Assembly: GCA_963665095.1 (NCBI GenBank)
Contig: OY762069.1
Location: 3,424,001-3,488,000 of the forward strand
Direction of reading: 5' to 3'
DNA from: an uncultured Desulfobacter sp.
GTDB taxonomy: Bacteria; Desulfobacterota; Desulfobacteria; Desulfobacterales; Desulfobacteraceae
DNA: 64,000 bases
Shown here: in pieces, positions 36,338-58,521 of the stretch
Position numbering within the stretch: the stretch's first letter is position 1
Layout of the letters: the number at the start of each line of letters is the position of its first letter
Notes under the pieces: model-generated
Told to the model about the DNA's origin: nothing
Seen by the model: the letters and a program-made list of their open reading frames with translations, nothing else
Databases searched by the model: none
Program-made: the position numbers and the translations under genes

Positions 36338-37024
36338 TTGCTGTACCGGAACGGGCCTGAATCAAGATGGATGTTATTGTTTGAAATCCGGTTTTTTATT
36401 GTCCTCCCCCTTTCGATAACAGCATATGGATTATCGCATACGAAATATAATGAAAAATACGGACGGCACCTTATCTGCGGCACAGCAGCCAGATCACAGC
36501 CCGCGATTTGTGGACCAATGCCTGATAAAATGTCCTATGTTATATGCTTAATTGACATTGACCATTTCAAACAAATAAATGACACATACGGCCATGAATA
36601 CGGCGACTCAGTCCTCAAGGAGATGTGCGCCCGGATTAAAAAAACAGTCAGAAAACAGGATATCTGTATCCGCTGGGGAGGCGAAGAGTTCCTTATTATA
36701 CTAAGGAACATCAACGCCCTATCTATCCGGGAAGCCACTCAACGTATTCAGACAGCTGTCTCATCAACTTCATTCTCCATTGGAAACCATGATCTCAGGG
36801 TAACGATCTCAGGCGGCATCTATCCGATCCTGCCCTGCTCTGTCGCCAACTTCACCGAAGTTGACACCCTTATAAACATTGCCGACAAAGCCCTTTATTA
36901 TGCCAAAACCAACGGACGGGATCAGTTTATCATGGCCGAGTGTGCGGACGATCTGCCTTGTACCAAAGTTGAGCGGTTTCAATCCACGCCCCCGCATGGA
37001 GGGCGACAATACACAACAATTTAA
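36338..37024 (+). pseudogene. GGDEF diguanylate cyclase fragment; reading frame ends inside the CRISPR array
   Basis: DIDHFKQINDTYGH, RWGGEEF, ADKALY.AK..GRD. No DxLTG N-terminus; the stop lies in the first spacer. Confidence 0.7.
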
Positions 37025-40000
37025 CTATTGGCAGCTTCCGTGTTTCAATCCACGCCCCCGCATGGAGGGCGACAATCGAATCAAGACTGTCTTTACAAAT
37101 AGGAGATGTTTCAATCCACGCCCCCGCATGGAGGGCGACAACTGTTCGCGATTATATCAGGGCGCATTTACTAGTTTCAATCCACGCCCCCGCATGGAGG
37201 GCGACACATCGTATTGTCTCCGTTTGCCGGGATCGGTTCCGTTTCAATCCACGCCCCCGCATGGAGGGCGACCATAAGGCCGGAAAAAATGTAAGTTTCC
37301 AAGCCGGTTTCAATCCACGCCCCCGCATGGAGGGCGACGTACATCTTTTATTCAGCATTCAGTCAGAATGCTGTTTCAATCCACACCCCCGCATGGAGGG
37401 CGACGCCCCACTTCAACCAATTTTTAAGGAGCAAAAATGTTTCAATCCACGCCCCCGCATGGAGGGCGACCTTTGAGATCACCAAAATCGCACCACTCAC
37501 TGTGTTTCAATCCACGCCCCCGCATGGAGGGCGACCTGTCGTCTGCCGCTGCCTGGCCTGATAATCATTGTTTCAATCCACGCCCCCGCATGGAGGGCGA
37601 CCTGTCCGGGTTTGGTTATTTGGCAAAAAAACCGGTTTCAATCCACGCCCCCGCATGGAGGGCGACTGAAAATAGTACATTTTGCAGATGTCCATTATGA
37701 TGTTTCAATCCACGCCCCCGCATGGAGGGCGACAAATCTCACTGTACACAAGGACCGCAGCATAATGGTTTCAATCCACGCCCCCGCATGGAGGGCGACC
37801 CAGCACGTCTGCCCCATCCAAATTGATATCGTCGTTTCAATCCACGCCCCCGCATGGAGGGCGACACTGATCTTTCTCCCGTCACAACACACCTAACAGG
37901 TTTCAATCCACGCCCCCGCATGGAGGGCGACGCGCCTATGGATCAAAACCAAACACTTCGCCAGGTTTCAATCCACGCCCCCGCATGGAGGGCGACCACG
38001 GAGAAAACCCCAAAGCCAAACTGCGGGTTGTTTCAATCCACGCCCCCGCATGGAGGGCGACAACAGTTCTGGCGATTTCCTTGACACGATAAACGTTTCA
38101 ATCCACGCCCCCGCATGGAGGGCGACAGCAGGTGATGTGGTGGCTGGAAAAACAATTGTGTGTTTCAATCCACGCCCCCGCATGGAGGGCGACGACCACC
38201 ATGAAGGTCCCTTCCAGCGGTGCCCAGTTTCAATCCACGCCCCCGCATGGAGGGCGACGTCAGAGTCCCACACCCGCCAGATCATCAAAGAAGTTTCAAT
38301 CCACGCCCCCGCATGGAGGGCGACATGATTTGGAGTATGCGCTTGACTGGGGGGCAGGTGTTTCAATCCACGCCCCCGCATGGAGGGCGACCAGCGTACC
38401 CACTACCATAATCTGATGAAAGTTGATGTTTCAATCCACGCCCCCGCATGGAGGGCGACATTTACTCATTGTCGTCTCTCCTTGTAAAAAATCGTTTCAA
38501 TCCACGCCCCCGCATGGAGGGCGACAAAGCTGCATAAAATGTGTTATATTTAGAGGCTTGTTTCAATCCACGCCCCCGCATGGAGGGCGACTTACTACCA
38601 AGCAACAAAAAATGTAGTAAATATTGTTTCAATCCACGCCCCCGCATGGAGGGCGACAGGCACTTGGAGTAGGATTGCCTGTTTTTCGACGTGTTTCAAT
38701 CCACGCCCCCGCATGGAGGGCGACTTATTTCCCGGCCCGTGTATGTTCCAACGGATTCGTTTCAATCCACGCCCCCGCATGGAGGGCGACAAGGACACAA
38801 ATTTTGACCGGTTAGCTTTTAGCCGTTTCAATCCACGCCCCCGCATGGAGGGCGACATAATTTTATGTTTATTTAGCCCTATCAATTCCCCGTTTCAATC
38901 CACGCCCCCGCATGGAGGGCGACTTTCGAAATATAGATGTGTTGCAAGCCAGTGACGGTTTCAATCCACGCCCCCGCATGGAGGGCGACCAGATGTTAAA
39001 AAAGGCCTGTTCTAATCCGCTTTCGTTTCAATCCACGCCCCCGCATGGAGGGCGACGTCCGGATCACTGACCGGCCCGCAGTCCGCTTTTGTTTCAATCC
39101 ACGCCCCCGCATGGAGGGCGACAAGCACCGCCGTCGTTACTATGTCTTTTGTCGATGTTTCAATCCACGCCCCCGCATGGAGGGCGACTTTGCCGAAGTC
39201 CAGCAAAAAGGCCCGCAGGTTTGTTTCAATCCACGCCCCCGCATGGAGGGCGACTTCGTTTTGCCATATCCTGTGTTACCCTGGTTCGTTTCAATCCACG
39301 CCCCCGCATGGAGGGCGACCGGCAATGCTGCCATCGGAATTACGGATATTCATCCGTTTCAATCCACGCCCCCGCATGGAGGGCGACGCCCCTGACTTTC
39401 GTGCTTCCGTCGAATTTGTTCTGTTTCAATCCACGCCCCCGCATGGAGGGCGACCTTTTTCAAGGTCCGGATGCAGTGGGACATTGCGGTTTCAATCCAC
39501 GCCCCCGCATGGAGGGCGACCCTCCATGATGGCCATGTTCGTCACTCCCACAGACGTTTCAATCCACGCCCCCGCATGGAGGGCGACAGTCAACAGAGTC
39601 CGACGGCCCGGCCACATGGATGTTTCAATCCACGCCCCCGCATGGAGGGCGACCGATACCGGTAATTTTCTTTCAACGGTCCACCTGTTTCAATCCACGC
39701 CCCCGCATGGAGGGCGACGCGTCACCAGACGGGGTAATTCCCGCGCCAGCCAGTTTCAATCCACGCCCCCGCATGGAGGGCGACAACTTCATACATGTCT
39801 CCGTTCAAAAGGAACGAGTTTCAATCCACGCCCCCGCATGGAGGGCGACCTGCTGGTGCGCGTGCCGGCCCCTTCATATTTACGTTTCAATCCACGCCCC
39901 CGCATGGAGGGCGACCTGCCCTCGGGCAATTCGTGCCGGTTCTGAAGGGTTTCAATCCACGCCCCCGCATGGAGGGCGACACCATCTGCCGATTAGATGT

Positions 40001-40841
40001 GATTAATACCAGTAGTTTCAATCCACGCCCCCGCATGGAGGGCGACTTGAGTTGAGGATATGGCAGAATAAATAGCAAAGGTTTCAATCCACGCCCCCGC
40101 ATGGAGGGCGACTAGGGGTTTTAACCGGTCTTGAGATCGCTTTTTTTGTTTCAATCCACGCCCCCGCATGGAGGGCGACTCCGGCAAGGGCCCGGGCATG
40201 ATCAAGTTTATTTGTTTCAATCCACGCCCCCGCATGGAGGGCGACGTGAAATTTTGGTTCGGCTGATTTCCCCCTGGTCTGTTTCAATCCACGCCCCCGC
40301 ATGGAGGGCGACCTACCGCCTCAAAAAACCAGGCCTCCTCTTCAGGTTTCAATCCACGCCCCCGCATGGAGGGCGACTCTGGCTAAAACAGGCTTTTTAG
40401 CCAGATCAGCCTGTTTCAATCCACGCCCCCGCATGGAGGGCGACATCCGGCACTGCGTTTGTGGGCCGGTTTTTTCCGTTTCAATCCACGCCCCCGCATG
40501 GAGGGCGACTTGTCATCCGTTGTTGGCCGTTGTTGTCATTGACGTTTCAATCCACGCCCCCGCATGGAGGGCGACGCATGTGACCGGCACAAACTGGTTG
40601 GCGTCGTCGGTTTCAATCCACGCCCCCGCATGGAGGGCGACCTGCCTAAAAGTGATGCCATGTTAATGGCATTCACTGTTTCAATCCACGCCCCCGCATG
40701 GAGGGCGACATCGTTAGAGCAAGACAGCGCATACTGGGTAGACGTTTCAATCCACGCCCCCGCATGGAGGGCGACACTGTTCCGGTTGTGACAGTTACAG
40801 AGCGAATCCGTTTCAATCCACGCCCCCGCATGGAGGGCGAC
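36976..40841 (-). CRISPR. type I-C CRISPR array, leader-distal half (59 repeats by my count)
   Basis: 32-bp repeat GTCGCCCTCCATGCGGGGGCGTGGATTGAAAC (minus strand), about 66-bp period, spacers 33-36 bp; one variant repeat at 37373. Confidence 0.98.
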
Positions 40842-40998
40842 CTGGGTAAAAGCCCGTTTTTGAGAATGATCACAAAAAATCATGGAAAAATTAAAGATAA
40901 TTTGCAAGATATGCCAGGGATGAGGCAGAAGCTCCCCCGTTTATCTCGCAAATAATCAATGGAACTTCTGCCCCTATTACCCTAACAGGGCAGGAGAT

Positions 40999-41574
40999 AT
41001 GCTATCAGAACTTATTAAAAACAAAAATCTTTTTTTCCATCTTTACGAAATCGATAAAAATACAGCAAAACAGTACAGACAGTTGCCTTGTCCGCATTGT
41101 GGAGGCCCCTTATATTTCAGCAATTACATGCGCAAGCCCCGGGGAGAGCCTGAGGGCGTGCCGGAGGAATTCTTTATTCAGTTCAGCCTATGTTGTGGAA
41201 CCGAAGGGTGTCGCAAAAGATTGATGCCGCCGTCCTGCCGTTTTCTGGGGAGAAAAGTCTACTGGTTTGCAGTTATTCTGTGTGTTTTAACAGACTGGCA
41301 AAATACCAATGAAAAAATCACCGTTTATGATTTGTCCATACGAACTGGCATTAGCCGGAACACAATAAACCGCTGGCTTGCCTTTTTTCAGGATACATTT
41401 CCAGTGAGCCGAACCTGGCGAAGGCTTCGGGGGCAGATATCCGCTGGTGTCAGTAACAGCCGTCTGCCGTCAAGTTTCATCAATTATTGCCGGGCGGTGA
41501 AATCCAACGCCGAAAACGCACTTGTATCAAGCCTGATAATCTTATCAGGCGGGTCCAAAATCAGGGCCGGATAA
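40999..41574 (+). CDS. transposon accessory protein, Cys-rich zinc finger plus HTH
   Basis: CPHCGG...CCGTEGCRKR; LSIRTGISRNTINRW. Confidence 0.7.
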   Translation: MLSELIKNKNLFFHLYEIDKNTAKQYRQLPCPHCGGPLYFSNYMRKPRGEPEGVPEEFFIQFSLCCGTEGCRKRLMPPSCRFLGRKVYWFAVILCVLTDWQNTNEKITVYDLSIRTGISRNTINRWLAFFQDTFPVSRTWRRLRGQISAGVSNSRLPSSFINYCRAVKSNAENALVSSLIILSGGSKIRAG

Positions 41575-41680
41575 TCTCGCGCAGAGGATGAACATAGACA
41601 AATATATGCAGGCTGTTTTACCACCTGATTTCAGACGTTGATCCGAAATTTTAACCTGAAATTAAAAAGGAGCCTGATTT

Positions 41681-43126
41681 ATGAGTGGTAAAACACAGCA
41701 CCCGGCAGACCTGTGGGCATTATTTCGCTTTTCGGTTATCGGCGGTTTACTGGCACGCCCTCCGGCAAAGGGAGAGTTGCAAAATGAACTGACCCGGCTC
41801 GCAGGTCAAATCTATTCTCATCCTGTGACGAACAAACCGACCTGTTTTCATTTTTCCACAATTGAGGCCTGGTATTACAGGGCAAAAAATTGCCAGGACC
41901 CAATTCTGGCTCTGGGCCGTAAAGTTCGTTCAGATATGGGCAAATCCACAGCATTGAATGCTGAATTGATCCGCCTTCTTGGTGTCCAGTACAACACTTA
42001 TCCGCAATGGAGCTATCAGCTTCATTGCGACAACCTGGCAGCTGAAATCGCTGAACAGGGCCTGTGTGAGAATCCGCCGTCCTATGCAAGTGTGAGAAGG
42101 CGTATGGTTGAACGGGGTTGGAGAAAAAAGGCTTCCAAGAACAAAAATCAAACATCCGGACAGAAATCAGCTTTTAAGCGATTAGAAACGTATGAAGTCC
42201 GTAGTTATGAAACCGAAAACATCCATGAATTATGGCATCTGGACTTTCACGAATGCAGCAGGCGCGTGGTGGACGAAAAAGGTCAGTGGCATACGCCCAA
42301 GGCATTGTGCATTCTTGATGATCGCTCCCGTCTGTGTTGTCATATTCAATGGTATTTGAATGAAACGGCAGAGGTTTTGATCCACGGCTTGTCCCAGGCG
42401 TTTTACAAAAGAGGGCTTCCCAGAGCCTTGATGACAGATAATGGTTCTGCCATGATTGCTCATGAAACCGGCAACGGACTTAAACGATTGGGCGTCAGTC
42501 ATGAGACCACGTTGCCATACTCGCCCTATCAAAATGGGAAGCAGGAAGCCTTTTGGGGTACACTTGAAGGCCGTTTGATCGCCATGCTGAGCCGGATGGA
42601 TTCTTTGACCCTGGTATATTTAAATCAGGTCTCCCAGGCCTGGATCGAGATGGAATACAACAAGTCAACCCATGATGAAATTCATATGTCGCCATTGCAA
42701 TGCGCCCTTGACGGCAAGGATGTGTCACGTCCTGCACCGGAACCTGAACAGCTTCAATTTTCGTTTACAGCCTGTGAATCCAGAAAACAGCGTCTGTCCG
42801 ATGGTACCATCTCTTTGATGGGCATCCGGTTTGAAATCCCTTCACGGTTTAATCATATCCAGCGTCTTCATGTCTGTTTTTGCTCCTGGGATAAATCGGT
42901 TGCCTGGCTGATAGATAAACGAACCGGAAATAAGCTTGCCGCAATTTATCCCCAGGACAAGACAAAGAATGCTTCAGCAATCCGTCGTATCAAATCCACT
43001 CCGGATGAAATTAACCCTGGCCATGAAACCCTGTCCGGATCAGAACCGGCCCTGCTTAAAAAGCTCTTGTCCGATTATGCAGCAACCGGAATGCCTTGTG
43101 CCTACTTGCCAATGGAGGAAAAGTGA
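41681..43126 (+). CDS. DDE transposase (rve core; IS481/Mu-like)
   Basis: WHLDF, ILDDRSR, TDNGS, PYQNGKQE; Mu-like C-terminal DGTISL.G.RFEIP. Confidence 0.9.
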   Translation: MSGKTQHPADLWALFRFSVIGGLLARPPAKGELQNELTRLAGQIYSHPVTNKPTCFHFSTIEAWYYRAKNCQDPILALGRKVRSDMGKSTALNAELIRLLGVQYNTYPQWSYQLHCDNLAAEIAEQGLCENPPSYASVRRRMVERGWRKKASKNKNQTSGQKSAFKRLETYEVRSYETENIHELWHLDFHECSRRVVDEKGQWHTPKALCILDDRSRLCCHIQWYLNETAEVLIHGLSQAFYKRGLPRALMTDNGSAMIAHETGNGLKRLGVSHETTLPYSPYQNGKQEAFWGTLEGRLIAMLSRMDSLTLVYLNQVSQAWIEMEYNKSTHDEIHMSPLQCALDGKDVSRPAPEPEQLQFSFTACESRKQRLSDGTISLMGIRFEIPSRFNHIQRLHVCFCSWDKSVAWLIDKRTGNKLAAIYPQDKTKNASAIRRIKSTPDEINPGHETLSGSEPALLKKLLSDYAATGMPCAYLPMEEK

Positions 43127-43950
43127 TGAACAGCAAACGATTATTGGCTTATTATGGATTGAAGTACAATCCTTTTTTACCAAATATTCCTGTGGACTCA
43201 TTATGGCATCCACCCCGGATGGAGGCATTTATTACACGCCTTGAAAATATGACCATGAACGGTGGATTTGCATTAATCGCCGGTGAACCCGGTCTTGGCA
43301 AATCCAAGACACTACAGGCGATTGCCCATCAGCTTGGCAAGCTTGATGAAGTCGTTGTCGGCGTTATGGAGCGCCCCCAAAGCAGCGTGGCCGATTTCTA
43401 TCGGGAAATGGGGACACTGTTTGGTGTCAATTTGAGTCCGGCCAACCGTTACGGAGGGTTCAAAGATCTGCGGCAACGATGGAAAAATCATATTAAAACA
43501 ACCCTGTTCAGACCCGTCCTGCTCATTGATGAGGCTCAGGAAATGCTTACCGGATGCCTGAATGAGCTTCGGTTGCTCAACAGTATGGATTTTGACTCCC
43601 AGAATTTATTGACCACCATTATCTGTGGTGATACCCGGCTGCCGGAACGGTTCAGAACCAGTGCATTGGTAGCCCTGGGGAGTCGACTCCGGTTCCGGTT
43701 AAAATTGGATCCTTATACCCGGGAAGAATTGTTGGATTATATAGCGCATTGCCTAAATCAGGCCGGAGCTCCTCAACTCATGACAAAACCTTTAATCACC
43801 GCTTTGGTAGAGCACTGTACAGGAAACTTACGGGTCCTCAATAATATGTCGGCAGAACTGCTTGAAGTGGGCGTTCAAAGAGAGCTGCCGCAACTGGATG
43901 AGAAACTTTTCATAGAGCTTTTTTCACTGAAACCGTCGCCAACCAGATAA
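43126..43950 (+). CDS. transposon AAA ATPase (ExeA/TnsC/MuB-like)
   Basis: GEPGLGKS, LLIDEAQ; ATG overlaps the transposase stop. Confidence 0.85.
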   Translation: MNSKRLLAYYGLKYNPFLPNIPVDSLWHPPRMEAFITRLENMTMNGGFALIAGEPGLGKSKTLQAIAHQLGKLDEVVVGVMERPQSSVADFYREMGTLFGVNLSPANRYGGFKDLRQRWKNHIKTTLFRPVLLIDEAQEMLTGCLNELRLLNSMDFDSQNLLTTIICGDTRLPERFRTSALVALGSRLRFRLKLDPYTREELLDYIAHCLNQAGAPQLMTKPLITALVEHCTGNLRVLNNMSAELLEVGVQRELPQLDEKLFIELFSLKPSPTR

Positions 43951-43961
43951 GAGGTATAAAA

Positions 43962-44204
43962 ATGACAATCAATGAAACACAACTTGAAAAAACAATGGCT
44001 GAAATTGTCGACGAGCTGGGCAATCTGGTCATGGAGTTGATCCTTGTCAGTTTAAAAAAAATAAACTCGGAAAATCATCTTTTGACAGAATTGCTGGAGA
44101 TCAAACAAGAGGAACAAAGAGAAAATGAATTTTATGGTTTTGGTGAAACGGAGCCGGGACATCCTGGGGAGGAAACCCGGCAAGGGATAGCCAAAAGCAG
44201 GTAG
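43962..44204 (+). CDS. small acidic hypothetical protein of the transposon
   Basis: GAGG RBS, 80 aa, followed by a terminator. Confidence 0.55.
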   Translation: MTINETQLEKTMAEIVDELGNLVMELILVSLKKINSENHLLTELLEIKQEEQRENEFYGFGETEPGHPGEETRQGIAKSR

Positions 44205-44221
44205 CATTGAATAATGCGCCG

Positions 44222-44253
44222 GGGGAAGCGGGGTTGACCTGCTTCCCCTTTCT
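44222..44253 (+). terminator. rho-independent terminator inside the transposon
   Basis: GGGGAAGCGGG-GTTGA-CCTGCTTCCCC-TTTCT. Confidence 0.7.
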
Positions 44254-44419
44254 GTATTATTCAAGCTTTCCTGCTCATGCCTTAAAAAACCCAATAAAAT
44301 CAGTCGGAGCGCAGCGACATCTGCTAATCATTGAAAATACAGTTATGCCTTTCCCTGATTTATCCTGATTGTCGCTCCATTGATTATCGTGCTTCCTCTC
44401 ATTTTACCCAGATCGACCT

Positions 44420-47400
44420 GTTTCAATCCACGCCCCCGCATGGAGGGCGACACATTTGGACAGTCAACGGTGTAGAGATGGTTTTTGTTTCAATCCACGC
44501 CCCCGCATGGAGGGCGACCTTAGCTTTTAAATACGTAGCGCAGTTGAACAAGTTTCAATCCACGCCCCCGCATGGAGGGCGACCGAGTTTTTGATACCAT
44601 AATCGTTTACAAGGAGTGTTTCAATCCACGCCCCCGCATAGAGGGCGACTGCCTAAAAGTGATGCCATGTTAATGGCATTCACTGTTTCAATCCACGCCC
44701 CCGCATGGAGGGCGACCAGCAGGGCATAGTCAAACGGCACGTTCAAGGGCTTGTTTCAATCCACGCCCCCGCATGGAGGGCGACTCTGTGGATGTTTTAA
44801 GGGTTTGTTGTCAGAGTTTGTTTCAATCCACGCCCCCGCATGGAGGGCGACCGTAAAGAGCGAATTGCAGTTGATGAACGGCAGCGTTTCAATCCACGCC
44901 CCCGCATGGAGGGCGACACGGTGACCTTGATGCCGCTGATGATGTATGTGCCGTTTCAATCCACGCCCCCGCATGGAGGGCGACAAGTAACAACCGCTGG
45001 GACAAGAGTTGTTACACTGTTTCAATCCACGCCCCCGCATGGAGGGCGACCATTGTGCCCAACTTTAGGGCCAACGTGTCCCGTGTTTCAATCCACGCCC
45101 CCGCATGGAGGGCGACTATTTTCCCTGCCGGTGTGGGGCAAAAGGTTGATGTTTCAATCCACGCCCCCGCATGGAGGGCGACCATTGTGCCAAATTTTAG
45201 GGCTAACGTGTCCCGTGTTTCAATCCACGCCCCCGCATGGAGGGCGACATTATTTTTCAATCAATTCAATGTTTGTGGCGGTGTTTCAATCCACGCCCCC
45301 GCATGGAGGGCGACCAGAGTCACCAAGGGAGACTTGTTTAAGGGCTTGTTTCAATCCACGCCCCCGCATGGAGGGCGACACAAAAATTGTTACACTGCAG
45401 AGGAGGCAATAACGTTTCAATCCACGCCCCCGCATGGAGGGCGACCATCTGCAGCTCTTTTTTACCAGGGTCCATATACGTTTCAATCCACGCCCCCGCA
45501 TGGAGGGCGACCGTCAGGCGTGTCTGTGGGACATTAAGTATCACATGTTTCAATCCACGCCCCCGCATGGAGGGCGACCCAGACCCAGACCCAGACCCAG
45601 ACCAATGCTAAGTTTCAATCCACGCCCCCGCATGGAGGGCGACCACAAACCAGACCAAATCTGAGACCAATGCTAAGTTTCAATCCACGCCCCCGCATGG
45701 AGGGCGACCGTCGAAAAACAGACAATCCCGCTCCAAGTGCCTGTTTCAATCCACGCCCCCGCATGGAGGGCGACCAAGAGCTGTTACACTGCAGAGGAGG
45801 CAGCAACGTTTCAATCCACGCCCCCGCATGGAGGGCGACCCCAATGTTTTCAGTGACTTAGGAGCAATACTGCGTTTCAATCCACGCCCCCGCATGGAGG
45901 GCGACGCAAGCACTTTAGGGGTTTGTTGGCGGAGTTTGAGTTTCAATCCACGCCCCCGCATGGAGGGCGACGCGCGAAGAGAGGCGCTGGATTCGTTTCC
46001 TTCCCGTTTCAATCCACGCCCCCGCATGGAGGGCGACCTGCAGCCTTTTCTTTGGGGGAAGTAGAGTCATTGTTTCAATCCACGCCCCCGCATGGAGGGC
46101 GACTCCCGTTTGGCGCTGAATTCAGCGCTGAGGTGTACGTTTCAATCCACGCCCCCGCATGGAGGGCGACGCCTAAAAGTGATGCCACGTTAATGGCATT
46201 CACTGTTTCAATCCACGCCCCCGCATGGAGGGCGACACTACTGGCCATTGTGCCAAATTTTAGGGCCAACGTTTCAATCCACGCCCCCGCATGGAGGGCG
46301 ACACCTTTTGCTGCTGGCGTTCCTGTCATAGTTATTCGTTTCAATCCACGCCCCCGCATGGAGGGCGACCCGCATGGCTTTCACTGCTTCCCATGTTCCA
46401 GGCGTTTCAATCCACGCCCCCGCATGGAGGGCGACCGCATGGCTTTCACTGCTTCCCATGTTCTATGCGTTTCAATCCACGCCCCCGCATGGAGGGCGAC
46501 ATAGGTGATCCCGATTTTCCAGACCTGCAATATGTTTCAATCCACGCCCCCGCATGGAGGGCGACACCCAACCAAACCGGGTTAAAAGCGGACAAAACCG
46601 TTTCAATCCACGCCCCCGCATGGAGGGCGACGACTATAGGCCGCTTAAATCAGGCGGGATCAGCTGTTTCAATCCACGCCCCCGCATGGAGGGCGACCCA
46701 AATGTTCCAGCTGTTCCGGCTGTTACAACGTGTTTCAATCCACGCCCCCGCATGGAGGGCGACGCGACTTTGATGCCGCCGAGGACGTATGTGCTGTTTC
46801 AATCCACGCCCCCGCATGGAGGGCGACCCCAATGTTTTCAGGGACTTAGGAGCAATACTGCGTTTCAATCCACGCCCCCGCATGGAGGGCGACTTTCTCT
46901 TTCAGCTACTCCGATGTCCCAGTCCACGTTTCAATCCACGCCCCCGCATGGAGGGCGACATTATTCAGCCTCCCCCATCACCCGGTACCGGCCGTTTCAA
47001 TCCACGCCCCCGCATGGAGGGCGACAGGGCGGGATTTGAACCCGCGATGTGCTGAGGGGTTTCAATCCACGCCCCCGCATGGAGGGCGACCTGGTTGTGA
47101 GCTGGTAAGCAAGCGCCAGCTCACGTTTCAATCCACGCCCCCGCATGGAGGGCGACAACTTGCTCCCATGCCCTACTACTCCAAGCCCGTGTTTCAATCC
47201 ACGCCCCCGCATGGAGGGCGACTCGCGGCAGCGGCCGTGATACCGCCCCTGTCACCGTTTCAATCCACGCCCCCGCATGGAGGGCGACCCAATGTTTTCA
47301 GGGACTTAGGAGCAATACTGCGTTTCAATCCACGCCCCCGCATGGAGGGCGACGCTCTAATTTGCAGTATAGATAACTATACCGCCGGTTTCAATCCACG

Positions 47401-48276
47401 CCCCCGCATGGAGGGCGACTTGTCATGAAGATAGACGCGCTTATAGACAAAATGTTTCAATCCACGCCCCCGCATGGAGGGCGACAAGACCCACGCCCCG
47501 CCTTTTGTCTCCACATCCTGTTTCAATCCACGCCCCCGCATGGAGGGCGACCGCCGGACTTGCGGAAATATTACCGGGTGGTCAGGTTTCAATCCACGCC
47601 CCCGCATGGAGGGCGACTGGGCGCGTTCAAAAAAGACAAACCACTTTTCAGGTTTCAATCCACGCCCCCGCATGGAGGGCGACTCGCGATTGCTATTTGA
47701 GGCTTTATATCGCGGTTGTTTCAATCCACGCCCCCGCATGGAGGGCGACCAGCCCGGTTAGTTGGTGCACCTACCTGCGTGGTCGTTTCAATCCACGCCC
47801 CCGCATGGAGGGCGACTCTTCAATCCCGTTCATAATGAGATTGTTTTAAGCGTTTCAATCCACGCCCCCGCATGGAGGGCGACGTAGAGCATAGTCAAAC
47901 GACCTGTTCAAAGCTTTGTTTCAATCCACGCCCCCGCATGGAGGGCGACCGCCAGGCATATGAAACGGATGAACAGTATGAAGTTTCAATCCACGCCCCC
48001 GCATGGAGGGCGACCAAGATTTTTTTCAAACAACTGTGCCTTCTCCCGTTTCAATCCACGCCCCCGCATGGAGGGCGACTGTCAGGCACCACAACATCCT
48101 CTGCAGGTGTCGTGTTTCAATCCACGCCCCCGCATGGAGGGCGACCCCAAAATACGCTATACAGATGGAAAAGCACTTGTTTCAATCCACGCCCCCGCAT
48201 GGAGGGCGACACCCGCAACCGGTCTATGGATGTTTTAAAGGCCCGTTTCAATCCACGCCCCCGCATGGAGGGCGAC
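44420..48276 (-). CRISPR. type I-C CRISPR array, leader-proximal half (59 repeats by my count)
   Basis: Same 32-bp repeat; one variant at 44618; ends at the AT-rich leader next to cas2. Confidence 0.98.
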
Positions 48277-50544: not shown

Positions 50545-51822
50545 TTAAAATCCGACCTCCCCAATATAAGGAAGGGCACCGTATCGTCCCTGAAGATACC
50601 CCTTTTCCAGCGCATCCCTTTTACAAGGATGAAAATCGGATAGCGAATAAAGCTGTGTGGCAGACGCGTTATCCTTTTCCACAAACCAGATCTGATCCCA
50701 TCTTAAAATTTTTAAATCCAGGATGGATGTATCATGGGTGGAAAAGACAAGCTGTCCATTGGCCTTATTAGAGACACGATTATGGATCATCCGAAGCAAA
50801 AACCGAATCATATGAGGATGAAAACTATTATTTAATTCATCAACAATCAATACCCGTCCATTTGTCAAAAGATCCAGCCAGGGACCGGCATAGGCAAAAA
50901 TTTTCTGCGTCCCAGCCGACTCATCCTCCAGTTTGAACGAGGTGGTCTGCTCCGAATCATTCATTTTATGGATGAATTCAACCTGCTTGAAACCTGTCCC
51001 GTTCAAATCCGTTGCTATTTTTTTCTTCAGCTCTCCGGGAACATTATCAGGCATTTTAATTTTATCTGTACTCAATTTGTCTGTTTTAATCCGGATGCCA
51101 TCCAGATTAACATCCGCACCTTTCATAAATGCCAGCACAGTGTTTCTGACAGTTTCTTCCTCACATTGTTCAATGGTAAACCCGGGATCAACATTCACCC
51201 CATGTCCGATAATCATCAATTTTTTAAACCAGGCAAACACTGGTTTTAACTGTTCACTGTTCAATTGCACAGCAACCGACAGGAAAAGGGCATTGGGGCG
51301 TGTATTCTCTTTCCATGTTTTTTTATTTCCGGCGAGTTTATTGCCCAAAGACCAGGCTTCTTCACCGGTTTTAGAATCAAATGAACGCTCAAACCATCGT
51401 TGAGGCCGGCTTTCCGGGTATGCCAGAAGCCACTCCCCGGTAACCCGTGCCTCATTACATGCAAATCCGTATTGGTACCGTACCTCGTCCTGGATAAAAA
51501 AAATCTCAAGTTCTGTTGACTCTGAAAGTCCCTGAGAATTCAGTCTGAATGGGAAACGATTGATAGTGTCTCCATCCTGTCCATGTCTGGAAGAGTCCAG
51601 GACAAAGCGCTGCATAAAGCCAAGCGCAGAAATCAAATTGCTTTTGCCCGCCCCATTGGGTCCCCAAATAACAGCAGACTTTAACAGTTTCAATAATCCC
51701 TTTATGGGGGTATCAAACACATTGCTGTCCTGCAGATCCTTAATGGCATTGCCTGCCGTCATGCTAAGGGTCTGCTGTTCCCACACAGATTTATAATTTT
51801 TTACACTGAATTCAATAAGCAT
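50545..51822 (-). CDS. ABC-type AAA ATPase (AAA_21/RloA/AbiEii-associated type)
   Basis: FSVKNYKS, GPNGAGKSN, ESAGT, LIVDE, FSTHD, YLQGRYGALP. Confidence 0.85.
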   Translation of the reverse strand: MLIEFSVKNYKSVWEQQTLSMTAGNAIKDLQDSNVFDTPIKGLLKLLKSAVIWGPNGAGKSNLISALGFMQRFVLDSSRHGQDGDTINRFPFRLNSQGLSESTELEIFFIQDEVRYQYGFACNEARVTGEWLLAYPESRPQRWFERSFDSKTGEEAWSLGNKLAGNKKTWKENTRPNALFLSVAVQLNSEQLKPVFAWFKKLMIIGHGVNVDPGFTIEQCEEETVRNTVLAFMKGADVNLDGIRIKTDKLSTDKIKMPDNVPGELKKKIATDLNGTGFKQVEFIHKMNDSEQTTSFKLEDESAGTQKIFAYAGPWLDLLTNGRVLIVDELNNSFHPHMIRFLLRMIHNRVSNKANGQLVFSTHDTSILDLKILRWDQIWFVEKDNASATQLYSLSDFHPCKRDALEKGYLQGRYGALPYIGEVGF

Positions 51823-51886
51823 GATGCATTTTCCAAATTTGGAAAAAAACAAAAAAACTGCATTTTTTGCAATGAAAATATAATTT

Positions 51887-52702
51887 CTATTGTTTTAGGC
51901 TCCGGTTTCTTTGTTTTTCATGGACCTCATCCACAAGATCCATGGACACTTTCCAGACCTGTTCACAAAAGGCTGAAAACGCGTTTAACGCCTCCGGTTC
52001 CGGCAACAGTTCACCACCACCTTGAATCTGTCCGACAGCGTAATGATACTGGGACAGTGCATCAATATAGGTTTTGCGCGCTTCCTTTGGCACAATGACG
52101 GGCGGCAGGCCCGCCTTTAAGACCGGCAGGTTGGCAACAAGTCTTGCCATCCTGCCGTTACCATCAAAAAAGGGATGAATGTGAACAAAGGAGACATGAA
52201 GAGCAACATAAGCCTGCAATGCCGTTTCTCTATCCCCGGGCACAGTTGATGACATAAGCTTATGATAGAGCGTAAACCACTTTTCCATAAGTTGGGGGAC
52301 ATCTTCGGGCAATGCATACTCAAAGACCACCTGTTTCTCATCCACCACGCCCACAGTGGAGTTGGGCTCTTTTTTCCAGCCCCCCACAGGTTTGTATATA
52401 TCAACAACCACATGGGTCTGAACCGCTTTGTGAAGATTGAACAGCGCCTCTTCATCAAAAGATCCCCCCTGGTCCAGCAATCCATAAACCAGATCAATGG
52501 CCCTGGCATGACCCACCACCTCCTCATGGTCCTTGAGGGGCTTGCCCGAAACGGTCAAGCCCTCTTCAAGAACAAAGGCGGTTTCACCCAAAGTCAGGGA
52601 GTTGCCCTCAATGGCTGTGGAGGTGTGGGTCCACAGGTTGCGCAGCTGGGTTATCAGGGCTTTTTGGAGGTCTTTGTCAAGATCCTGTAAAAAATAAAGC
52701 AT
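51887..52702 (-). CDS. Fic family protein
   Basis: HPFFDGNGRMAR catalytic motif; N-terminal inhibitory STAIEGN. Confidence 0.9.
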   Translation of the reverse strand: MLYFLQDLDKDLQKALITQLRNLWTHTSTAIEGNSLTLGETAFVLEEGLTVSGKPLKDHEEVVGHARAIDLVYGLLDQGGSFDEEALFNLHKAVQTHVVVDIYKPVGGWKKEPNSTVGVVDEKQVVFEYALPEDVPQLMEKWFTLYHKLMSSTVPGDRETALQAYVALHVSFVHIHPFFDGNGRMARLVANLPVLKAGLPPVIVPKEARKTYIDALSQYHYAVGQIQGGGELLPEPEALNAFSAFCEQVWKVSMDLVDEVHEKQRNRSLKQ

Positions 52703-52732: not shown

Positions 52733-53596
52733 TTACATCAATTCCTGAAAGGTGACACCGCTGGGGATCTTGTCTTTATCTATAGAGACAGAATAATCAC
52801 TAAATTGACGAGCAGGTCTGGAAGAGTCTTCCCGTTCGATTTTTATCGTATCAAAAAGTGTATGCGCGTGGGCATTGCCCAGCTCGCTATCATGCTTGAA
52901 GACAATCAACTTACGGCTGCTCATAAATCCACGGGCGGCGGAGCGGTCATGTTCAAACATGTTGCTCAAAGCATTCCAAAGTAGCTCCAGGTCTTCACCG
53001 CTAAAACCTGTTTTAGAAGCTAAAGGAGCTGAGATAAATCCTTTTGACATATACAAACCATAGGGGACGATATGTTTCCGCCCCATGGTCCTTTCTTTTT
53101 CCAGATCTCTTAAATTTGTGACTGCCATGCGAGTAATACTGATTTCCTGGGAAAAAATCGGCTCTACGCTTTTAGCAAAAGCGAATTGGACAGGCCCCCT
53201 GACTTGACCACAATTAACTTCGGTGGTCATTACTGCCCCAAAGGCTCTCACATCGAAAAAATTACTGCACATCCAGCCGGTAACTTTTTTAGCATCTTCT
53301 TCTTTTTTAGGAAGCTTTTTTTTCTGAGGTTCAAGATCATATTCTTTATAGGCCAATTTGTTGGTTTCATTGAGTACAGCTTTTTCTTGAATATAAATAT
53401 TATATCCCGGTTTGCCGTCCATAAGAATTGAAACATGATTTCTTATTTTACGTTTGAGGCAGACATCGGTTACCAGGCCGTACCCGGTTTCAGGATCAAA
53501 CCGGGGCAAATTCCCTGCATCAGGGTCACCATTGGGGTTCCCGTTTTCAACATCAAACAGCAGCACAAATTCGTACCGGTTAGCAATCGCAGTCAT
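52733..53596 (-). CDS. cas7: type I-C Cas7/Csd2
   Basis: [40 protein letters not shown]. Confidence 0.97.
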
Positions 53597-53599
53597 GAT

Positions 53600-55366
53600 T
53601 TAAACCTCCTCATTTTTTTTAGTAAAAAAGCTTTTACGCTGATGATAGTATCCAATCATAAAAAGCCCTTGCGCCTCTGCAGGAAGTGTTGCCGGGAAAG
53701 CGTCAAACTTATCCACGATTTCCTGAACCAGTCTTTCAAAATAGGTTGCCCGTCCCGTTTTTTCAGGATCTTTTCTAAGCTTAGCAATATGATTGGTTGA
53801 ATTCTTTAAAATCATGTGGAAAACAAGTCCCGGTGTAGCCGAAGCAGATGAAAGATAACGGTCTTTCATGGTTGCATTGGCACCGGGAATCGCCTCTTCC
53901 TGTGCTTTTTCCAAAACTGAAAAAAGACGACCCAATAGATACGATCCATCGGTTCTCTCAATGTCCAGCGTCATGGTTACCTCCTTTAAATTAGTCGCGG
54001 TTGAATTGCGCATAAGAAAAGCTTTAAGCATAGCAGCTCGAAAATAGGTTATATTGTGTTCACTGCGAATACGTTGAAGAACAAGCGGTAACAAATTCTG
54101 CGGAAAAGCAGAACCTGTTAAAATTGCGCGGGCCATGTTGCCTGCCAATACCGGTGAAACATTCTCACTTTTCCCTTGAGAAGCTGTTTGACAGAGCAGA
54201 CGCCAAAGCGGCGGGTATTCAGGCTCATTTTCGAACTGCCTTGCAATGGAAAGCTGGTCAAAGTAATTACTTATTCTTTTTAACAGGTTGCCGAAACTGT
54301 CCACTTCCCAAAAACGAATGGAAAGTCGGGCTGCATTGGGCGATAATCCTAAAATAAAAAACCGAATCGAATCATCCAGGTCCGGCATTATATCTGTTAC
54401 TCTACGGCCGTCTTTGACCGCACGTAAAAGCCCACGTATCTTTTCGGCTGTTTCCTGGTCATCCTGGTTCTTTTTCGAGGGATCTGTTTCTATTTCAGGA
54501 GGATCAAAAAGATCCGCAAAAAGGTCTTCAGCCGGACTGGGTTTTTCAGCCCAGAAAACCAGCGTCATGTCGCCGATGGTAATATGCTGGCGGCTATTAG
54601 ACGATAACAGTGAGTTTAAGGCTGTGGTATAGGCAAAGGCTGACATTTCACTTACAGCAGCTTTATCTTGCCCATAGGAGACAAATGCCGTTGCATTGTA
54701 TGAAACGATATACCCCCCTGATGTTTGCCCTCCCCTGACTCCTTTTATCGGGGTATGAACTCTGGCTTGGGGGACATCTTTTTCACCATTGACCATACAT
54801 TGGATACTGGGAGCGCTGTTTGACTGCTCAACGTATTTCAACCAGGCGTTGCGGACAAGGCTTCGCTCATGAATATAACCGGTGGTTCCATCCAGCCGAA
54901 ATACAAAATTAGCGTTACACAGGTCATCCCAGGAATGATATTCTATAAGCACAGATTCAGTTTCCTGGCTATTCCATTGCTGGAGAAAGGCTAACACGGC
55001 GTGAATAGCGTTATCTTCTATGCCTTGGCACACTTCGCTGATTAATCCTTGAAAAGCTTCAAACCGCGATCTATTATCATCTGTAGGCCCATCGGAATCA
55101 GCCCCCAGCACATAGGCCGCCTTATCCCACAAAAAATTGGCTTTTACACCAGATGTCCTGGTAACTGCGGCTGGCACAGGGATCATTCTGGGGATTAATT
55201 TCCTTCCACTTTGTTCCCTTAAATCATCCACGCCCTTGAGTGATCCTTTATCATCAATAATCAAGGCAAATGAGATCTTCTCAATACTTGTGCCAAACGG
55301 CGGCATCCCGGAGTCTGAGTCTGCAGCCACTCTTTCATAGTAACTGTTTAAGGCCTGGAGAATCAT
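53600..55366 (-). CDS. cas8c: type I-C Cas8c/Csd1
   Basis: [36 protein letters not shown]. Confidence 0.95.
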
Positions 55367-56028
55367 GATTTTACCTCCGAAGATAAAGGAGAGGGCGGTC
55401 TGATAATTCCGTTTTCCATAACAGCTTTAAAAAAAAGAGGGGTTTGATTGTTATTAAAATCTATGTCCAGCAACATATACCCCAAATCCTTAGAGTATCC
55501 GTTATAGCAAGAGACCGGAATTTCATCTTCCAGCAGTTCGAAAGCGGCGGGGAACTCCCGGCATCCTAAGCACGGCTGATGAAAAAACTGCCCATTTTGT
55601 GCCCGTCTGTTAAAGATACTCAGATGCTTGCCTTCGTTATCATCACTACCGGCCTTATCCGTCATTTCAAAATGCGCCTCAATGATATAAGCGACGTCCC
55701 TGAGCAGGGTAGTCGCACGCTGCTGTCTGTTTTTACCGTCATCGACAAGATAATAAAGACGTTTTTCCTTGCTCATAACCGTGGAGGGATTAGGTTTAGG
55801 AATCTTAGACGCCACTTCATTGCGGCGGACATTATCGAATTTAATAGGATTTAAAACGTGTATTTTATCAATGACCCAACGAATAGCCGGCTTCCAATGA
55901 ATTGCTTCCAGAATACCTCGAGCGGCCGAGGGCGTCATAACATCATAAGATACACGTTCCACTTTCATCTCCGGGCGGGTAAAGCAGGCATAATCGCCCC
56001 AGACCTTCAACTTGATTCCAAATGCCAT
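55363..56028 (-). CDS. cas5: type I-C Cas5 (Cas5d)
   Basis: [28 protein letters not shown]. True start is ATG 56028 after AAGGAG, not the track start 56091. Confidence 0.95.
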
Positions 56029-56050
56029 AAATTGTCTCCTTTTTAGAGAT

Positions 56051-56146
56051 TGCAGGCCATAAATATCATCTGTTTTATAAATGGCCTGCATGCCCTAGCT
56101 GCTTCTACCTAATGTTTCAATCCACATTCCCGTATTCGGAAACGAC
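56051..56146 (-). ncRNA. crRNA-like regulatory RNA: degenerate repeat (56114-56146), 23-nt guide (56091-56113), 3' hairpin (56051-56090)
   Basis: GTCGTTTCCGAATACGGGAATGTGGATTGAAAC keeps the 11-nt handle and an 8-bp stem; the guide matches the PAM-flanked site 56305-56324. Confidence 0.8.
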
Positions 56147-56154
56147 ATATCCTT

Positions 56155-56229
56155 TTATGGGGACTCCAAAACGAGTTCAACATCAAACAGTTCTTTTCCC
56201 CAAATGGCTATTTTAAGCTTTATCCGCAT
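56155..56229 (-). CDS. 24-aa small ORF MRIKLKIAIWGKELFDVELVLESP (candidate CRISPR-repressed toxin or leader peptide)
   Basis: Strong SD GAGGGGGG, ATG 56229, TAA 56155; first ORF after the promoter. Confidence 0.55.
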   Translation of the reverse strand: MRIKLKIAIWGKELFDVELVLESP

Positions 56230-56262
56230 ATGATCCCCCCTCTTTAAATTAATTGCATATTA

Positions 56263-56324
56263 AAAATAGAAGGGAAAAAGTTAATAGTCAAGAATAAATT
56301 ATTCATTAGTTAGAATAAGCTTGG
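56263..56324 (-). promoter_or_regulatory. cascade-operon promoter (TTGACT-N17-TATTTT) with upstream TTC-PAM protospacer
   Basis: -35 at 56286-56291, -10 at 56263-56268; + strand TTC 56302-56304 then ATTAGTTAGAATAAGCTTGG. Confidence 0.7.
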
Positions 56325-56331
56325 TAACTAA

Positions 56332-58521
56332 TCATTGAATTAAACTTCCAACGTCCCAAACATCTGCACGGTCAATCATCAAGCCCACATCACCGCTATA
56401 CGCCCCCTTATTTTGTAATATCGGGATCTCGTCATGAATTAGTTCAATTGCTCCTACAGTATACAACTTGGTGTATTCTCCGGCCCTAACAGCAACCAGA
56501 TAGGGTTGAAGTTTTCTAAGCAGAATCCCTGGAAATTCTGTGTACCTAAGCTGTTCAACCAATTGCTCTGCTTCTGGTTCCCCGGGCACCACAACGCCAA
56601 TCGTATCGTCTTCAATAAACCGAAAATCCCGGGCAACCTCCTTGAAAGGGAACAAAAGATCTTTATCAAGTATCTTGGGATTTAAACGGCGCATGATCTG
56701 TTTCTTATCCAGATCTTCGATGTCATAAAGCAGTTCAAAATAACGCCGCATCACCTGAGTACTCATAGGATCATATTCCGGCATACAGCGTATTGCCTCA
56801 GCGGTTTTCGAAATACACCTGTTAAGCCAGGGCATCCGAGGCTTTTTTTCCGGTTCAAAAATAAAAACCTGCCCAAGCCCTTTCATCTTGCCCTCTCGAT
56901 TACAACGACCGGCAGCCTGAGCAATGGAATCCAAACCAGAGATGGCCCTGAAAACAACCGGAAAATCCAAATCAACCCCAGCCTCCACAAGAGAAGTGGC
57001 AACCACCACACATTTTTTATTTTCACGCAAACGCCGCCTTATTCTCTTAAATATCTGCCTCCGATGCTGTGGATACATATTTGTGGATAAATGAAAAATC
57101 CCGACATTTTTTTTATTTAACAACTCGAATATTTTCCGGGCTTGTGATTTTGTGGCGGCAATACACAACGCCTGGTTCTCAAAATTCATAAGCTGCGCAA
57201 TTTCTTCATCCGTTTTTTTCCCGATAAAAGAGACATTGGTGCGCTTTAATTTTGAAAAAATTAGGTCTGGCTCATCAATTATTTCTTTAATTTGCGGCAA
57301 AGCTGACCGTAAACGACTGGTATCATCAAAGGCCGGTTGAGTTGCTGTGCATAAGACGACGGTACAACCGTAGTGAGCCACCAATTCCCGAAGGGCGGCA
57401 AGGCAAGGTTCTAGATAATCAGCCGGGACGGCCTGTGCTTCGTCTATCACAATAACACTTCGAGCAATATTGTGAAGTTTACGGCAACGGGAAGATTTAT
57501 TATTAAAAAGGGATTCAAAGAATTGTACATTGGTGGTGACTATAATCGGGCAATCCCAATTTTCTGTGGCCAATCCCCGTCGCCGGTTATAAGCAGCCTC
57601 TTCGGGTTCATCAGATTCTTTATAATTGCAATGATGTTCGAGAACTGAATTTCTCCCAAAAATATTTTGGAAAACTCCTGCATTCTGTTCAATGATTGAG
57701 GTGAAAGGAATCGTATAAATTATTCTGTCCATACCATTTTCGACCGCATGATCTAAAGCGAAACTCATGGAAGACAACGTTTTTCCGCCACCTGTCGGCA
57801 CTGTGAAAGAAAAAAACTGTGGCGGTAATTGGGCTTTTCCTTTGCATTGGCCGAATATAATCCTTCGAAGCTTGTTCACATGGGTCGGCTGAGCGCTTGC
57901 AAGAATATCATTCATGTAAATTTCCATCTTGCGTTGAAGCTCAGATATGTTTTTTTCTTGCTGGAATCGCCCCCTTTCTTTTGCAATTTCGGGGGCACAA
58001 AATTTTTCAGTATCTAAAAAGTCAGCGTCAACAAGGCAGGAAAAAATCATTCGAGTAAAAAATGACAAAGAAAAGCCCCCAGTTTCTCTTTCCAGTTTAA
58101 ATGGGAAGTCTAATTTTTTAAGATACGGGTTTATTAAATCAAGTTTTTCAGTTTCATGAGAATTGTTATGCTTTAACCGAAAATGCAACTGTGTCTCCTG
58201 CTCTCCACCGTCAGGAATCCCACCATGATGGCCCGCAATTGCATAAGATAAGAGCAGGCCAAGATTACCACTGCTTTCCTTTGCCAGGCAAGCACCAAAG
58301 GAGGAATGGTCCACTCGTTCTGGACTACCCTCCAATCTTCGTTGAAAAGCTAAAGTTGCTTTTCCGGCATCATGCAGTAATCCAGCCAAATTCCCCCATT
58401 TTTTTGCCTCGAAAGTTCCCGAAAAACAACCCGCCATATTGGCAACATTCGTCAGATGAGTTTCCAGAAGCTGCCATTCTTTTTTTGGTCTCTCTTGTAA
58501 ACTGTGTGCGTAGTATTTCAT
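56332..58521 (-). CDS. cas3: CRISPR-associated helicase/nuclease Cas3
   Basis: YYAHS, LHDAGK (HD), PTGGGKT, DEAQ, QAAGRCNRE; start ATG 58521 after GGAGAGG. Confidence 0.97.
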   Translation of the reverse strand: MKYYAHSLQERPKKEWQLLETHLTNVANMAGCFSGTFEAKKWGNLAGLLHDAGKATLAFQRRLEGSPERVDHSSFGACLAKESSGNLGLLLSYAIAGHHGGIPDGGEQETQLHFRLKHNNSHETEKLDLINPYLKKLDFPFKLERETGGFSLSFFTRMIFSCLVDADFLDTEKFCAPEIAKERGRFQQEKNISELQRKMEIYMNDILASAQPTHVNKLRRIIFGQCKGKAQLPPQFFSFTVPTGGGKTLSSMSFALDHAVENGMDRIIYTIPFTSIIEQNAGVFQNIFGRNSVLEHHCNYKESDEPEEAAYNRRRGLATENWDCPIIVTTNVQFFESLFNNKSSRCRKLHNIARSVIVIDEAQAVPADYLEPCLAALRELVAHYGCTVVLCTATQPAFDDTSRLRSALPQIKEIIDEPDLIFSKLKRTNVSFIGKKTDEEIAQLMNFENQALCIAATKSQARKIFELLNKKNVGIFHLSTNMYPQHRRQIFKRIRRRLRENKKCVVVATSLVEAGVDLDFPVVFRAISGLDSIAQAAGRCNREGKMKGLGQVFIFEPEKKPRMPWLNRCISKTAEAIRCMPEYDPMSTQVMRRYFELLYDIEDLDKKQIMRRLNPKILDKDLLFPFKEVARDFRFIEDDTIGVVVPGEPEAEQLVEQLRYTEFPGILLRKLQPYLVAVRAGEYTKLYTVGAIELIHDEIPILQNKGAYSGDVGLMIDRADVWDVGSLIQ

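Follow-up and report, generated by a model that had tools for sequence, protein, structure and literature searches.

The locus lies on the minus strand of the window, by which is meant the whole 64,000-nucleotide stretch of Desulfobacter DNA analysed here. It is a type I-C CRISPR-Cas locus. The gene for the HD nuclease-helicase, cas3 (56332..58518; Pfam Cas3_HD, DEAD and Cas3-like_C_2), forms the upstream boundary of the module described below. A gap of 303 nt separates it from cas5c (55363..56028; Pfam Cas_Cas5d). Next come cas8c (53600..55366; Pfam Cas_Csd1), cas7c (52733..53596; Pfam Cas_Cas7), a Fic gene, an AAA/AbiEii-like gene, cas4, cas1, cas2 and a long CRISPR array (36976..48276, minus strand) with 116 exact repeat copies. 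The names of cas4, cas1 and cas2 were given by eye from their translations. The named neighbours whose Cas5c is closest are Desulfobacterota.

Two other regions of the locus carry additional genes. Between cas7c and cas4 (50545-52702) are the Fic-domain gene and the AAA_21/AbiEii-like gene, which probably share the guide-repressed transcript. The array is split by about 3.6 kb (40810-44420) containing ORFs for a 482-aa transposase-like, a 192-aa and a 275-aa ATPase-like protein, named by eye, and one spacer (family D3) is present on either side of the split.

The gap between cas3 and cas5c holds a compact series of elements. The first is a TTC PAM (56302-56304, plus strand) with a partial protospacer (56305-56321), followed on the minus strand by a predicted sigma-70-type promoter, TTGACT-17-TATTTT (56263..56291). 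The consensus scan that found this promoter is weak alone, since it returned 3 sites where 1.7 are expected. A purine-rich, Shine-Dalgarno-like run, AGAGGGGGG (56243-56235), precedes an ORF of 24 codons (56229 to 56155) that encodes MRIKLKIAIWGKELFDVELVLESP and ends TCC CCA TAA. The stop codon lies 8 nt before a solitary degenerate repeat of 33 nt (56146-56114), itself followed by a 17-nt guide (spacer-like) segment (56097..56113) and a long 3' hairpin (56044..56097, inverted repeat I15; fold z = -2.7 to -3.6) that closes the crRNA-like RNA directly before the cas5c ribosome-binding site. The preliminary description had picked out the ORF, its ribosome-binding site, the repeat and the 8-nt spacing, and all of these are real. 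When the mononucleotides of the 116-nt stretch were shuffled 20,000 times, 0.65% of the shuffles contained an ORF of at least 20 codons that was closed by a stop and led by a Shine-Dalgarno sequence. Contigs of 4 sequencing runs carry an identical ORF region; they come from at most 3 samples, among which the source of the window may itself be present; no RNA run is listed among the sequencing runs with the ORF region.

The degenerate repeat retains the first 4 and the last 12 nucleotides of the array repeat, and it folds as a hairpin followed by an 11-nt handle, a predicted Cas5c site. With every sixth position skipped, the guide and the TTC-flanked site at 56305-56321 agree at 14 of the 15 positions scored; among about 261,000 TTC sites of the 6.9-Mb genome, the runner-up reaches 11. 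The PAM is 10 nt upstream of the predicted -35 box of the ORF; in most homologues with an opposite-strand target, a -35-like box is found 3-13 nt from the PAM. Regulatory RNAs of the I-C CreA/CreR kind are recognised by two features: the guide matches part of a TTC-flanked site, at its PAM-proximal end and beside a promoter, and the degenerate repeat keeps the hairpin and 11-nt handle. Both are found here, the promoter being a predicted one, and by its sequence the window unit is a candidate regulator of this crRNA-like kind. In Neisseria-derived systems, I-C crRNA-like RNAs of the same layout are reported to lower promoter activity about 20-fold (10.1101/2024.12.27.630466).

The guides differ from locus to locus, and each tends to match its own upstream region. 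A score of at least 12 of 15 is reached in 20 of 22 cognate pairs compared with 16 of 462 non-cognate pairs, and none of 100,000 permutations equals the cognate matching, a comparison in which kin are not independent. In L132 and L139, the two pairs below this score, the guide matches its own promoter only with a one-base bulge. In L043 and L124 it has a mismatch at position 3, within the seed. Bulges and mismatches both count against the reading of the ORF as a toxin, as does the lack of a clear Shine-Dalgarno sequence in L124.

The ORF belongs to a family with 22 distinct members at the DNA level: 18 gap-free cores of 24 codons, one 27-mer (L194) and three Alphaproteobacterial 26-mers. Three of the 18 cores also have an upstream in-frame start that would give 25, 26 or 30 aa. 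The members come from several families and at least two phyla. They were collected, after deduplication, by profile searches combined with locus fetches based on Cas5c, which are blind to the peptide. A search with the peptide in 401 genomes of the order found it in two other genomes of other families, both times in the slot between cas3 and cas5c, and a profile search of 396 genomes returned the same three. Further profile searches gave 2 strong matches in 401 genomes of the phylum and 7 in 301 genomes of one class. All nine strong genome-search matches other than the window adjoin cas3 or cas5c and a degenerate repeat. Among the grounds on which the preliminary description would have abandoned its proposal was that the ORF is not conserved beside degenerate repeats at I-C loci of relatives; it is conserved in just that position, with promoters matched by co-varying guides. 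The count of 22 omits duplicates (L114, L121, L123, L133, L209-L211), weak profile matches, which are outside all counts (L115-L120, L127, L128, L213), and L147 and L208, where no stop follows Pro-AUA.

Protein libraries add little to the family. A profile search of 1.84 billion protein representatives gave 9 matches, of which 4 are new members, all ending in Glu-Pro-Pro and none functionally named. Of the other five, the two that were inspected are repeat-driven. Five exact member sequences were absent from a collection of 15 billion proteins. The peptide had no match in Pfam, PHROGs or the PDB sequences, one in NCBIfam at E 0.2 and two in Rfam at E >0.2. A tblastn search of phages and plasmids gave nothing, and viral contigs held no relative: pattern searches there returned 0 and 11 matches, none of the 11 a member. 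An apparent second genomic copy (L120, E 0.33) runs antisense inside a kinase-like ORF and is attributed to chance. The family is not described in the parts of the literature that were available, including those of the CreR preprint, the mini-array paper, PMC12737573 and the phage crlRNA preprint; it may be listed in the bioRxiv CRISIS/CreR supplements or in the 2021 Science CreTA paper.

Selection acts on the peptide itself. Pairwise identity among the 18 cores is 0.62, 0.80 and 0.44 at codon positions 1, 2 and 3, pN is 0.27 against a pS of 0.74, and there are no indels. Because of these values, the peptide sequence cannot be regarded as irrelevant. The family follows one pattern, in which a basic alternating strand, an invariant glycine and an acidic alternating strand succeed each other. 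The C-terminal register is fixed: the glycine stands 13 residues ahead of the last one in all 22 members, of which 20 end in Glu-Pro-Pro or Glu-Pro-Ile. A conserved C-terminus that keeps its register relative to the stop is a mark of termination-arrest peptides. The Alphaproteobacterial 26-mers are likely, though not certain, to be homologous to the 24-mers, because a comparison of profiles aligns the two groups without gaps over the last 14 columns (probability 59, E 9e-5). A search of 391 genomes for more of this group returned one, the seed itself, and a weak match interrupted by stops.

The predicted fold of the peptide is an amphipathic beta-hairpin, with Gly11 at the turn of the window copy. 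For the 30-aa homologue L126, AlphaFold2 gives two strands, E7-15 and E18-27 (pLDDT 72, pTM 0.21); a four-copy complex of the peptide scored 0.01. A hairpin around a Trp-Gly turn had been suggested from the window sequence. The hairpin is upheld by this prediction, but the tryptophan is not conserved, since 16 of the 18 cores have phenylalanine.

A second kind of conservation concerns the last codon. The last sense codon is CCA in all 18 cores and in L194, and it is followed by TAA or TAG. UGA is the stop in none of these 19 CCA-type members; TGA ends 34% of the long ORFs of the genome. As a baseline, 149 of 1066 proline codons in the cas genes nearby are CCA, and so is the last codon of 49 among the 155 long ORFs of the genome that end in proline. 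The third base of CCA changes 0 times on a Cas5 tree that covers 17 members (L125, which has no close Cas5c, was left out). For each codon from 2 to 23 and for the stop, the third base changes 4-10 times, and each of the 47 invariant four-fold Cas5 columns changes at least once. The protein searches that contributed members could not have selected for a synonymous codon. Two proline codons stand before the stop in 17 of 18 cores and in L194. The exceptions are the window copy, with Ser-Pro, and the three Alphaproteobacterial members, with Pro-Ile. All three of the latter end in AUA, and ATA accounts for 9-15% of local isoleucine codons. To our knowledge, AUA in bacteria is read only by lysidine-modified tRNA-Ile2. 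The genome of the window has one tRNA-Pro gene each for UGG, CGG and GGG. The UGG isoacceptor, which reads CCA, is the essential tRNA-Pro in enterobacteria (PMC8384417).

Stop codons show a further difference between the window and its relatives. The window ORF ends in UAA; UAG is the stop in 13 of 18 relatives. Pyrrolysine tRNA, tRNA-Pyl, reads UAG. For genome G000, ARAGORN lists both tRNA-Pyl(CUA) and tRNA-Sec(UCA).

The preliminary description had sought the codon-level signal at the start of the ORF, where CGG and two ATA codons were taken to be rare. This does not hold. CGG is the commonest arginine codon of the genome (34%), and ATA, with 13% of isoleucine codons, is not conserved there, being present at codon 3 in 1 of 18 cores and at codon 7 in 3 of 18. 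The run of consecutive rare codons after a strong Shine-Dalgarno sequence that characterises rare-codon CreT RNAs is absent from the window ORF. By these comparisons the codon-level signal is at the 3' end and not at the start.

The census of related loci links the ORF to the guide. From 185 loci fetched by Cas5, those without a cas3 end, those with gaps above 900 nt and duplicates were dropped, which left 164 distinct gaps between cas3 and cas5c. ORF and repeat occur together in 17 of them (L208 is counted as ORF-bearing), the repeat alone in 46, neither in 101 and the ORF alone in none; the profile was built from these members. Since the unit exists without the ORF in 46 gaps, the guide unit does not need the ORF. 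A small gene linked to a guide under a predicted repressed promoter is one mark of CreTA, and to that extent the proposed CreT/CreP-like module stands. The CreP half of the comparison falls, as CreP is a 103-aa KilAC protein. That the ORF is never found without the repeat may come from the joint loss of a 200-nt cassette and not from toxicity, and co-deletion alone could explain the census.

Taken together, it is probable that the window ORF is an active repressed toxin of one kind or another. A more specific reading, which is held tentatively but comes first among those considered, is that of a Cascade-silenced toxin that stalls its own ribosome at the Pro-stop end and traps the tRNA of the last codon. 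By analogy with tested I-C loci, Cas5c would cut the degenerate repeat to give an RNA of roughly 50 nt, and Cascade carrying this guide would bind beside the -35 box and repress the ORF, the guide and cas5c-8c-7c together. Once Cascade is lost or inhibited, the ORF would be derepressed and the peptide translated. The nascent beta-hairpin, with Glu-(Pro/Ser)-Pro at its end, would then block release at the stop. Ribosomes would be depleted, together with peptidyl-tRNA-Pro(UGG) or, where the last codon is AUA, tRNA-Ile2. The resulting growth arrest would addict the cell to Cascade and serve as an abortive defence against phages with anti-CRISPRs.

The stalled termination and the trapped last-codon tRNA are proposed because the UGG isoacceptor is essential and because of several precedents. 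Among the ends that stall ribosomes in E. coli, Pro-Pro-stop and Asp-Pro-stop have the strongest effect (10.1101/751305). Overexpression of TnaC, which ends in Pro24, inhibits growth through depletion of tRNA-Pro, and the hairpin-shaped PepNL blocks termination without an inducer (PMC11890864). Toxic minigenes exhaust the tRNA that reads their final sense codon, an effect that declines with length (PMC8708949), so the 24-codon candidate would need an active arrest sequence. Known CreT RNAs act through AUA or Pro-Pro codons (PMC8501985; 10.64898/2026.06.02.729485). Also in favour of this reading are the coding conservation, the fixed last codon in both groups, the cognate guide matching, the census, and the units that are inverted relative to cas5c or lie upstream of cas3.

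Several observations count against this reading. The window copy has Ser23 where 17 of 18 have proline, while the proline-codon toxin of Pseudomonas needs two prolines; the Ser-Pro allele of the window may be weaker than the Pro-Pro of the family. The Pro-AUA of L147 and L208 is not followed by a stop, and the AUA group consists of three loci. The conserved N-terminal strand is as compatible with a peptide that is released and folds as with one that arrests the ribosome. There is a general preference for NNA codons ahead of stops, and in one species that was tested a C-terminal proline left expression unchanged (10.1101/751305).

The ORF might instead be a translated leader that is not toxic and acts in cis. 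A ribosome paused at the stop, or pairing between CCAUA and the handle, would tune the maturation or stability of the guide RNA or the read-through into cas5c, and would thereby couple Cascade autorepression to translation. The arrangement of the locus lends this some weight: the repeat always follows the ORF directly on the same strand, with 26-78 nt from the stop of the ORF to the end of the repeat, and stalled ribosomes can stabilise mRNA (PMC8708949). Pairing of the ORF end with the repeat is slightly better in cognate pairs (p 0.04 for all 22 members, 0.10 for the 18 cores). The fixed CCAUA could itself be an RNA signal, as the co-variation test is powerless against pairing with an invariant repeat handle. 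However, the fixed A pairs downstream with a probability above 0.5 in just 3 of 22 folds and with no consistent partner, the ORF end does not co-vary with the Shine-Dalgarno sequence (p 0.67 for 22; 0.985 for 18), and the repeat occurs without the ORF family in 46 of 164 gaps. In three loci (L070, L104 and L110) the unit points away from cas5c, which weakens the option of a leader for cas5c. The preliminary description had left a leader peptide open as an option. On this evidence a cis-acting leader is unlikely.

Two observations border on the pairing and on the position of the unit. Pairing of the ORF end with its own Shine-Dalgarno sequence was rejected as the cause of Pro-Pro because of the missing co-variation, yet 7 of 18 folds place the end on the 5' leader with a probability above 0.4. 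In genome G914 the unit is found upstream of cas3 in a distant I-C system, and between cas7c and cas4 of this operon (L212) there is a 165-aa ORF that resembles, by eye, the four-helix-bundle/23S rRNA intervening-sequence type.

Another possibility is a repressed toxin that acts in trans. An amphipathic beta-hairpin would self-assemble in or on the membrane, or add a strand to a host protein, and the two prolines would be structural. The strict alternation of hydrophobic and charged residues, kept over the whole length and not just at the C-terminus, is consistent with this, as is the two-strand hairpin predicted for L126. Unrelated ORFs of 32-62 aa, several with a hydrophobic stretch, also occupy the same slot in other I-C loci. 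A toxin of this kind leaves the fixed synonymous last codon and the absence of UGA (19 of 19 CCA-type members) unexplained, and the peptide does not resemble the last hairpin of NusG to a significant degree. It is somewhat less likely again than a leader acting in cis.

The NusG comparison was considered as a case of mimicry and rejected. It arose from two weak profile matches (E 0.018 and 0.044 per genome), which we take to be the last hairpin of NusG, at a cut-off where about 20 chance matches are expected. The NusG of the genome itself ranks 17th of 9,983 ORFs, with an E of 60.

It is also conceivable, if improbable, that the family is toxic and that the Ser-Pro copy of the window is a weakened or dead escape allele, the locus now being one of plain CreR-type autorepression. 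A single transition separates TCC from CCC, the codon in 9 of 18 cores, and Pro23 is present in 17 of 18 DNA members and 4 of 4 library proteins. The module has been lost from G006, a genome of the same genus, where both flanks are kept, the target, promoter, ORF and guide are gone and cas5c is broken. Against this, the Shine-Dalgarno sequence, the frame, Gly11, Glu18, Glu22, the CCA-UAA end and the 14 of 15 guide match of the window are all intact, and its Ile-Trp-Gly-Lys turn is shared by P0005, which has a Pro-Pro end. A broken cas5c occurs in 1 of 22 loci without the ORF and 0 of 16 with it, at most a hint that Cascade genes become undeletable where the ORF is present, since it is a single case and not significant. 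The start of cas5c in G006 (L005) carries an insertion of about 134 nt with inverted ends and a 9-nt duplicated target. Finally, that a chance ORF lies in the leader of an ordinary CreR RNA is barely credible: short ORFs are common and no library names the peptide, but the selection analysis has already refuted this idea, given purifying selection, a fixed length and 22 members over several families and at least two phyla.

The proposed toxin, which would arrest its own ribosome at Pro-stop, can be compared with several known systems. Three classes of CRISPR-repressed toxin have been described so far, and all of them come from types I-B and I-F, according to one report (10.64898/2026.06.02.729485). 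By its sequence, the module resembles CreTA, but it lacks the defining features of both rare-codon CreT RNAs and CreP.

One close parallel is the proline-codon CreTA of P. aeruginosa type I-F (10.64898/2026.06.02.729485). It shares with the family a small ORF led by a Shine-Dalgarno sequence, which in most members of the family likewise closes with two proline codons and a stop, and a promoter matched by a crRNA-like RNA within the cas locus. The Pseudomonas toxin is a 15-nt mini-ORF that acts as RNA, needs a GC-rich hairpin, tolerates synonymous proline codons and is described as specific to I-F. The family of the window is found in type I-C, has 24 codons (75 nt), shows selection on its amino acids and ends in CCA or AUA, with Ser-Pro in the window copy. 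Haloarchaeal CreT RNAs (PMC8501985) depend on translation, are proposed to trap a single tRNA and include AUA among the codons they use. Their ORFs are described as six codons long, with rare codons in tandem and a peptide that plays no part, whereas the present family has no conserved rare-codon pair and a conserved peptide.

CreP of the Acinetobacter I-F CrePA module (10.1101/2024.01.05.574328) is likewise encoded by an ORF between cas genes under CreA repression, which in the window is predicted. It is a division inhibitor of 103 aa with a KilAC domain, in contrast to a 24-aa peptide without a Pfam, NCBIfam or PHROG match. The I-C solitary-repeat RNAs that regulate Nezha, Gabija and CRISIS (10.1101/2024.12.27.630466) share the whole layout: cas3, a TTC target by the -35 box, cargo, a solitary repeat with an 11-nt handle, a short guide, a 3' hairpin and cas5c. 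Their cargo consists of large enzymatic defence genes, while that of the window is a 75-nt ORF. TnaC and PepNL (PMC11890864) are short ORFs that stall at their own stop, as the window ORF is proposed to do; TnaC ends in Pro24, PepNL forms a hairpin, and overexpression traps tRNA or release factor and inhibits growth. They are cis regulators of metabolic genes in which arrest was demonstrated, whereas in the window it is inferred, and no homology to them is claimed.

The slot between cas3 and cas5c holds other small ORFs. Unnamed ORFs of 46-62 aa are found there in L073 (2269-2409), L076 (2229-2399), L084 (2247-2423), L095 (2237-2425), L101 (2236-2415), L111, L152 (968-1117) and L184 (1002-1154), and by eye in L082, L108 and L145. 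They typically encode an alternating strand and then a hydrophobic stretch, and those scanned gave no Pfam match and one weak PHROG match. They are candidates for further repressed toxins. ORFs of 32-35 aa led by a Shine-Dalgarno sequence, of three further sequence types, lie directly before the solitary repeat in L065 (2280-2387), L103 (388-486) and L142 (477-581).

Some loci carry a guide unit in another form and without the peptide family. I-C loci of gut or bioreactor type (L148, L153-L155, L167, L172, L174, L175, L177, L181, L189, L192 and L206) have an inverted solitary-repeat or two-repeat unit, and at the promoter of cas5c there is a site that its guide matches. Two viral contigs from IMG/VR (L214 and L215) have cas3 followed by an inverted solitary repeat, a guide and a hairpin at the contig end.

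A wider proposal, possible but on the whole doubtful, joins these elements. The family would add a fourth class to the CRISPR-repressed toxins and give type I-C its first, an arrest peptide used as a weapon, in which the last codon, CCA or AUA, picks the essential tRNA to be trapped. The cassette would move between divergent I-C systems and re-tune its guide to each promoter, and the slot would hold further unnamed toxins of 30-60 aa. Whether such toxin pairs occur in other CRISPR types and with other targets is a question raised by a 2025 review (PMC12737573). The family offers 22 natural alleles of a 75-nt candidate from type I-C, with built-in contrasts between Pro-Pro, Ser-Pro and Pro-Ile ends and between loci with and without the ORF. 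If the arrest is true, it would be a new family of termination-arrest peptides that links peptide-coded with codon-coded toxicity. Type I-C loci that have been read as plain autoregulation may hide genes of fewer than 30 codons that gene callers miss.
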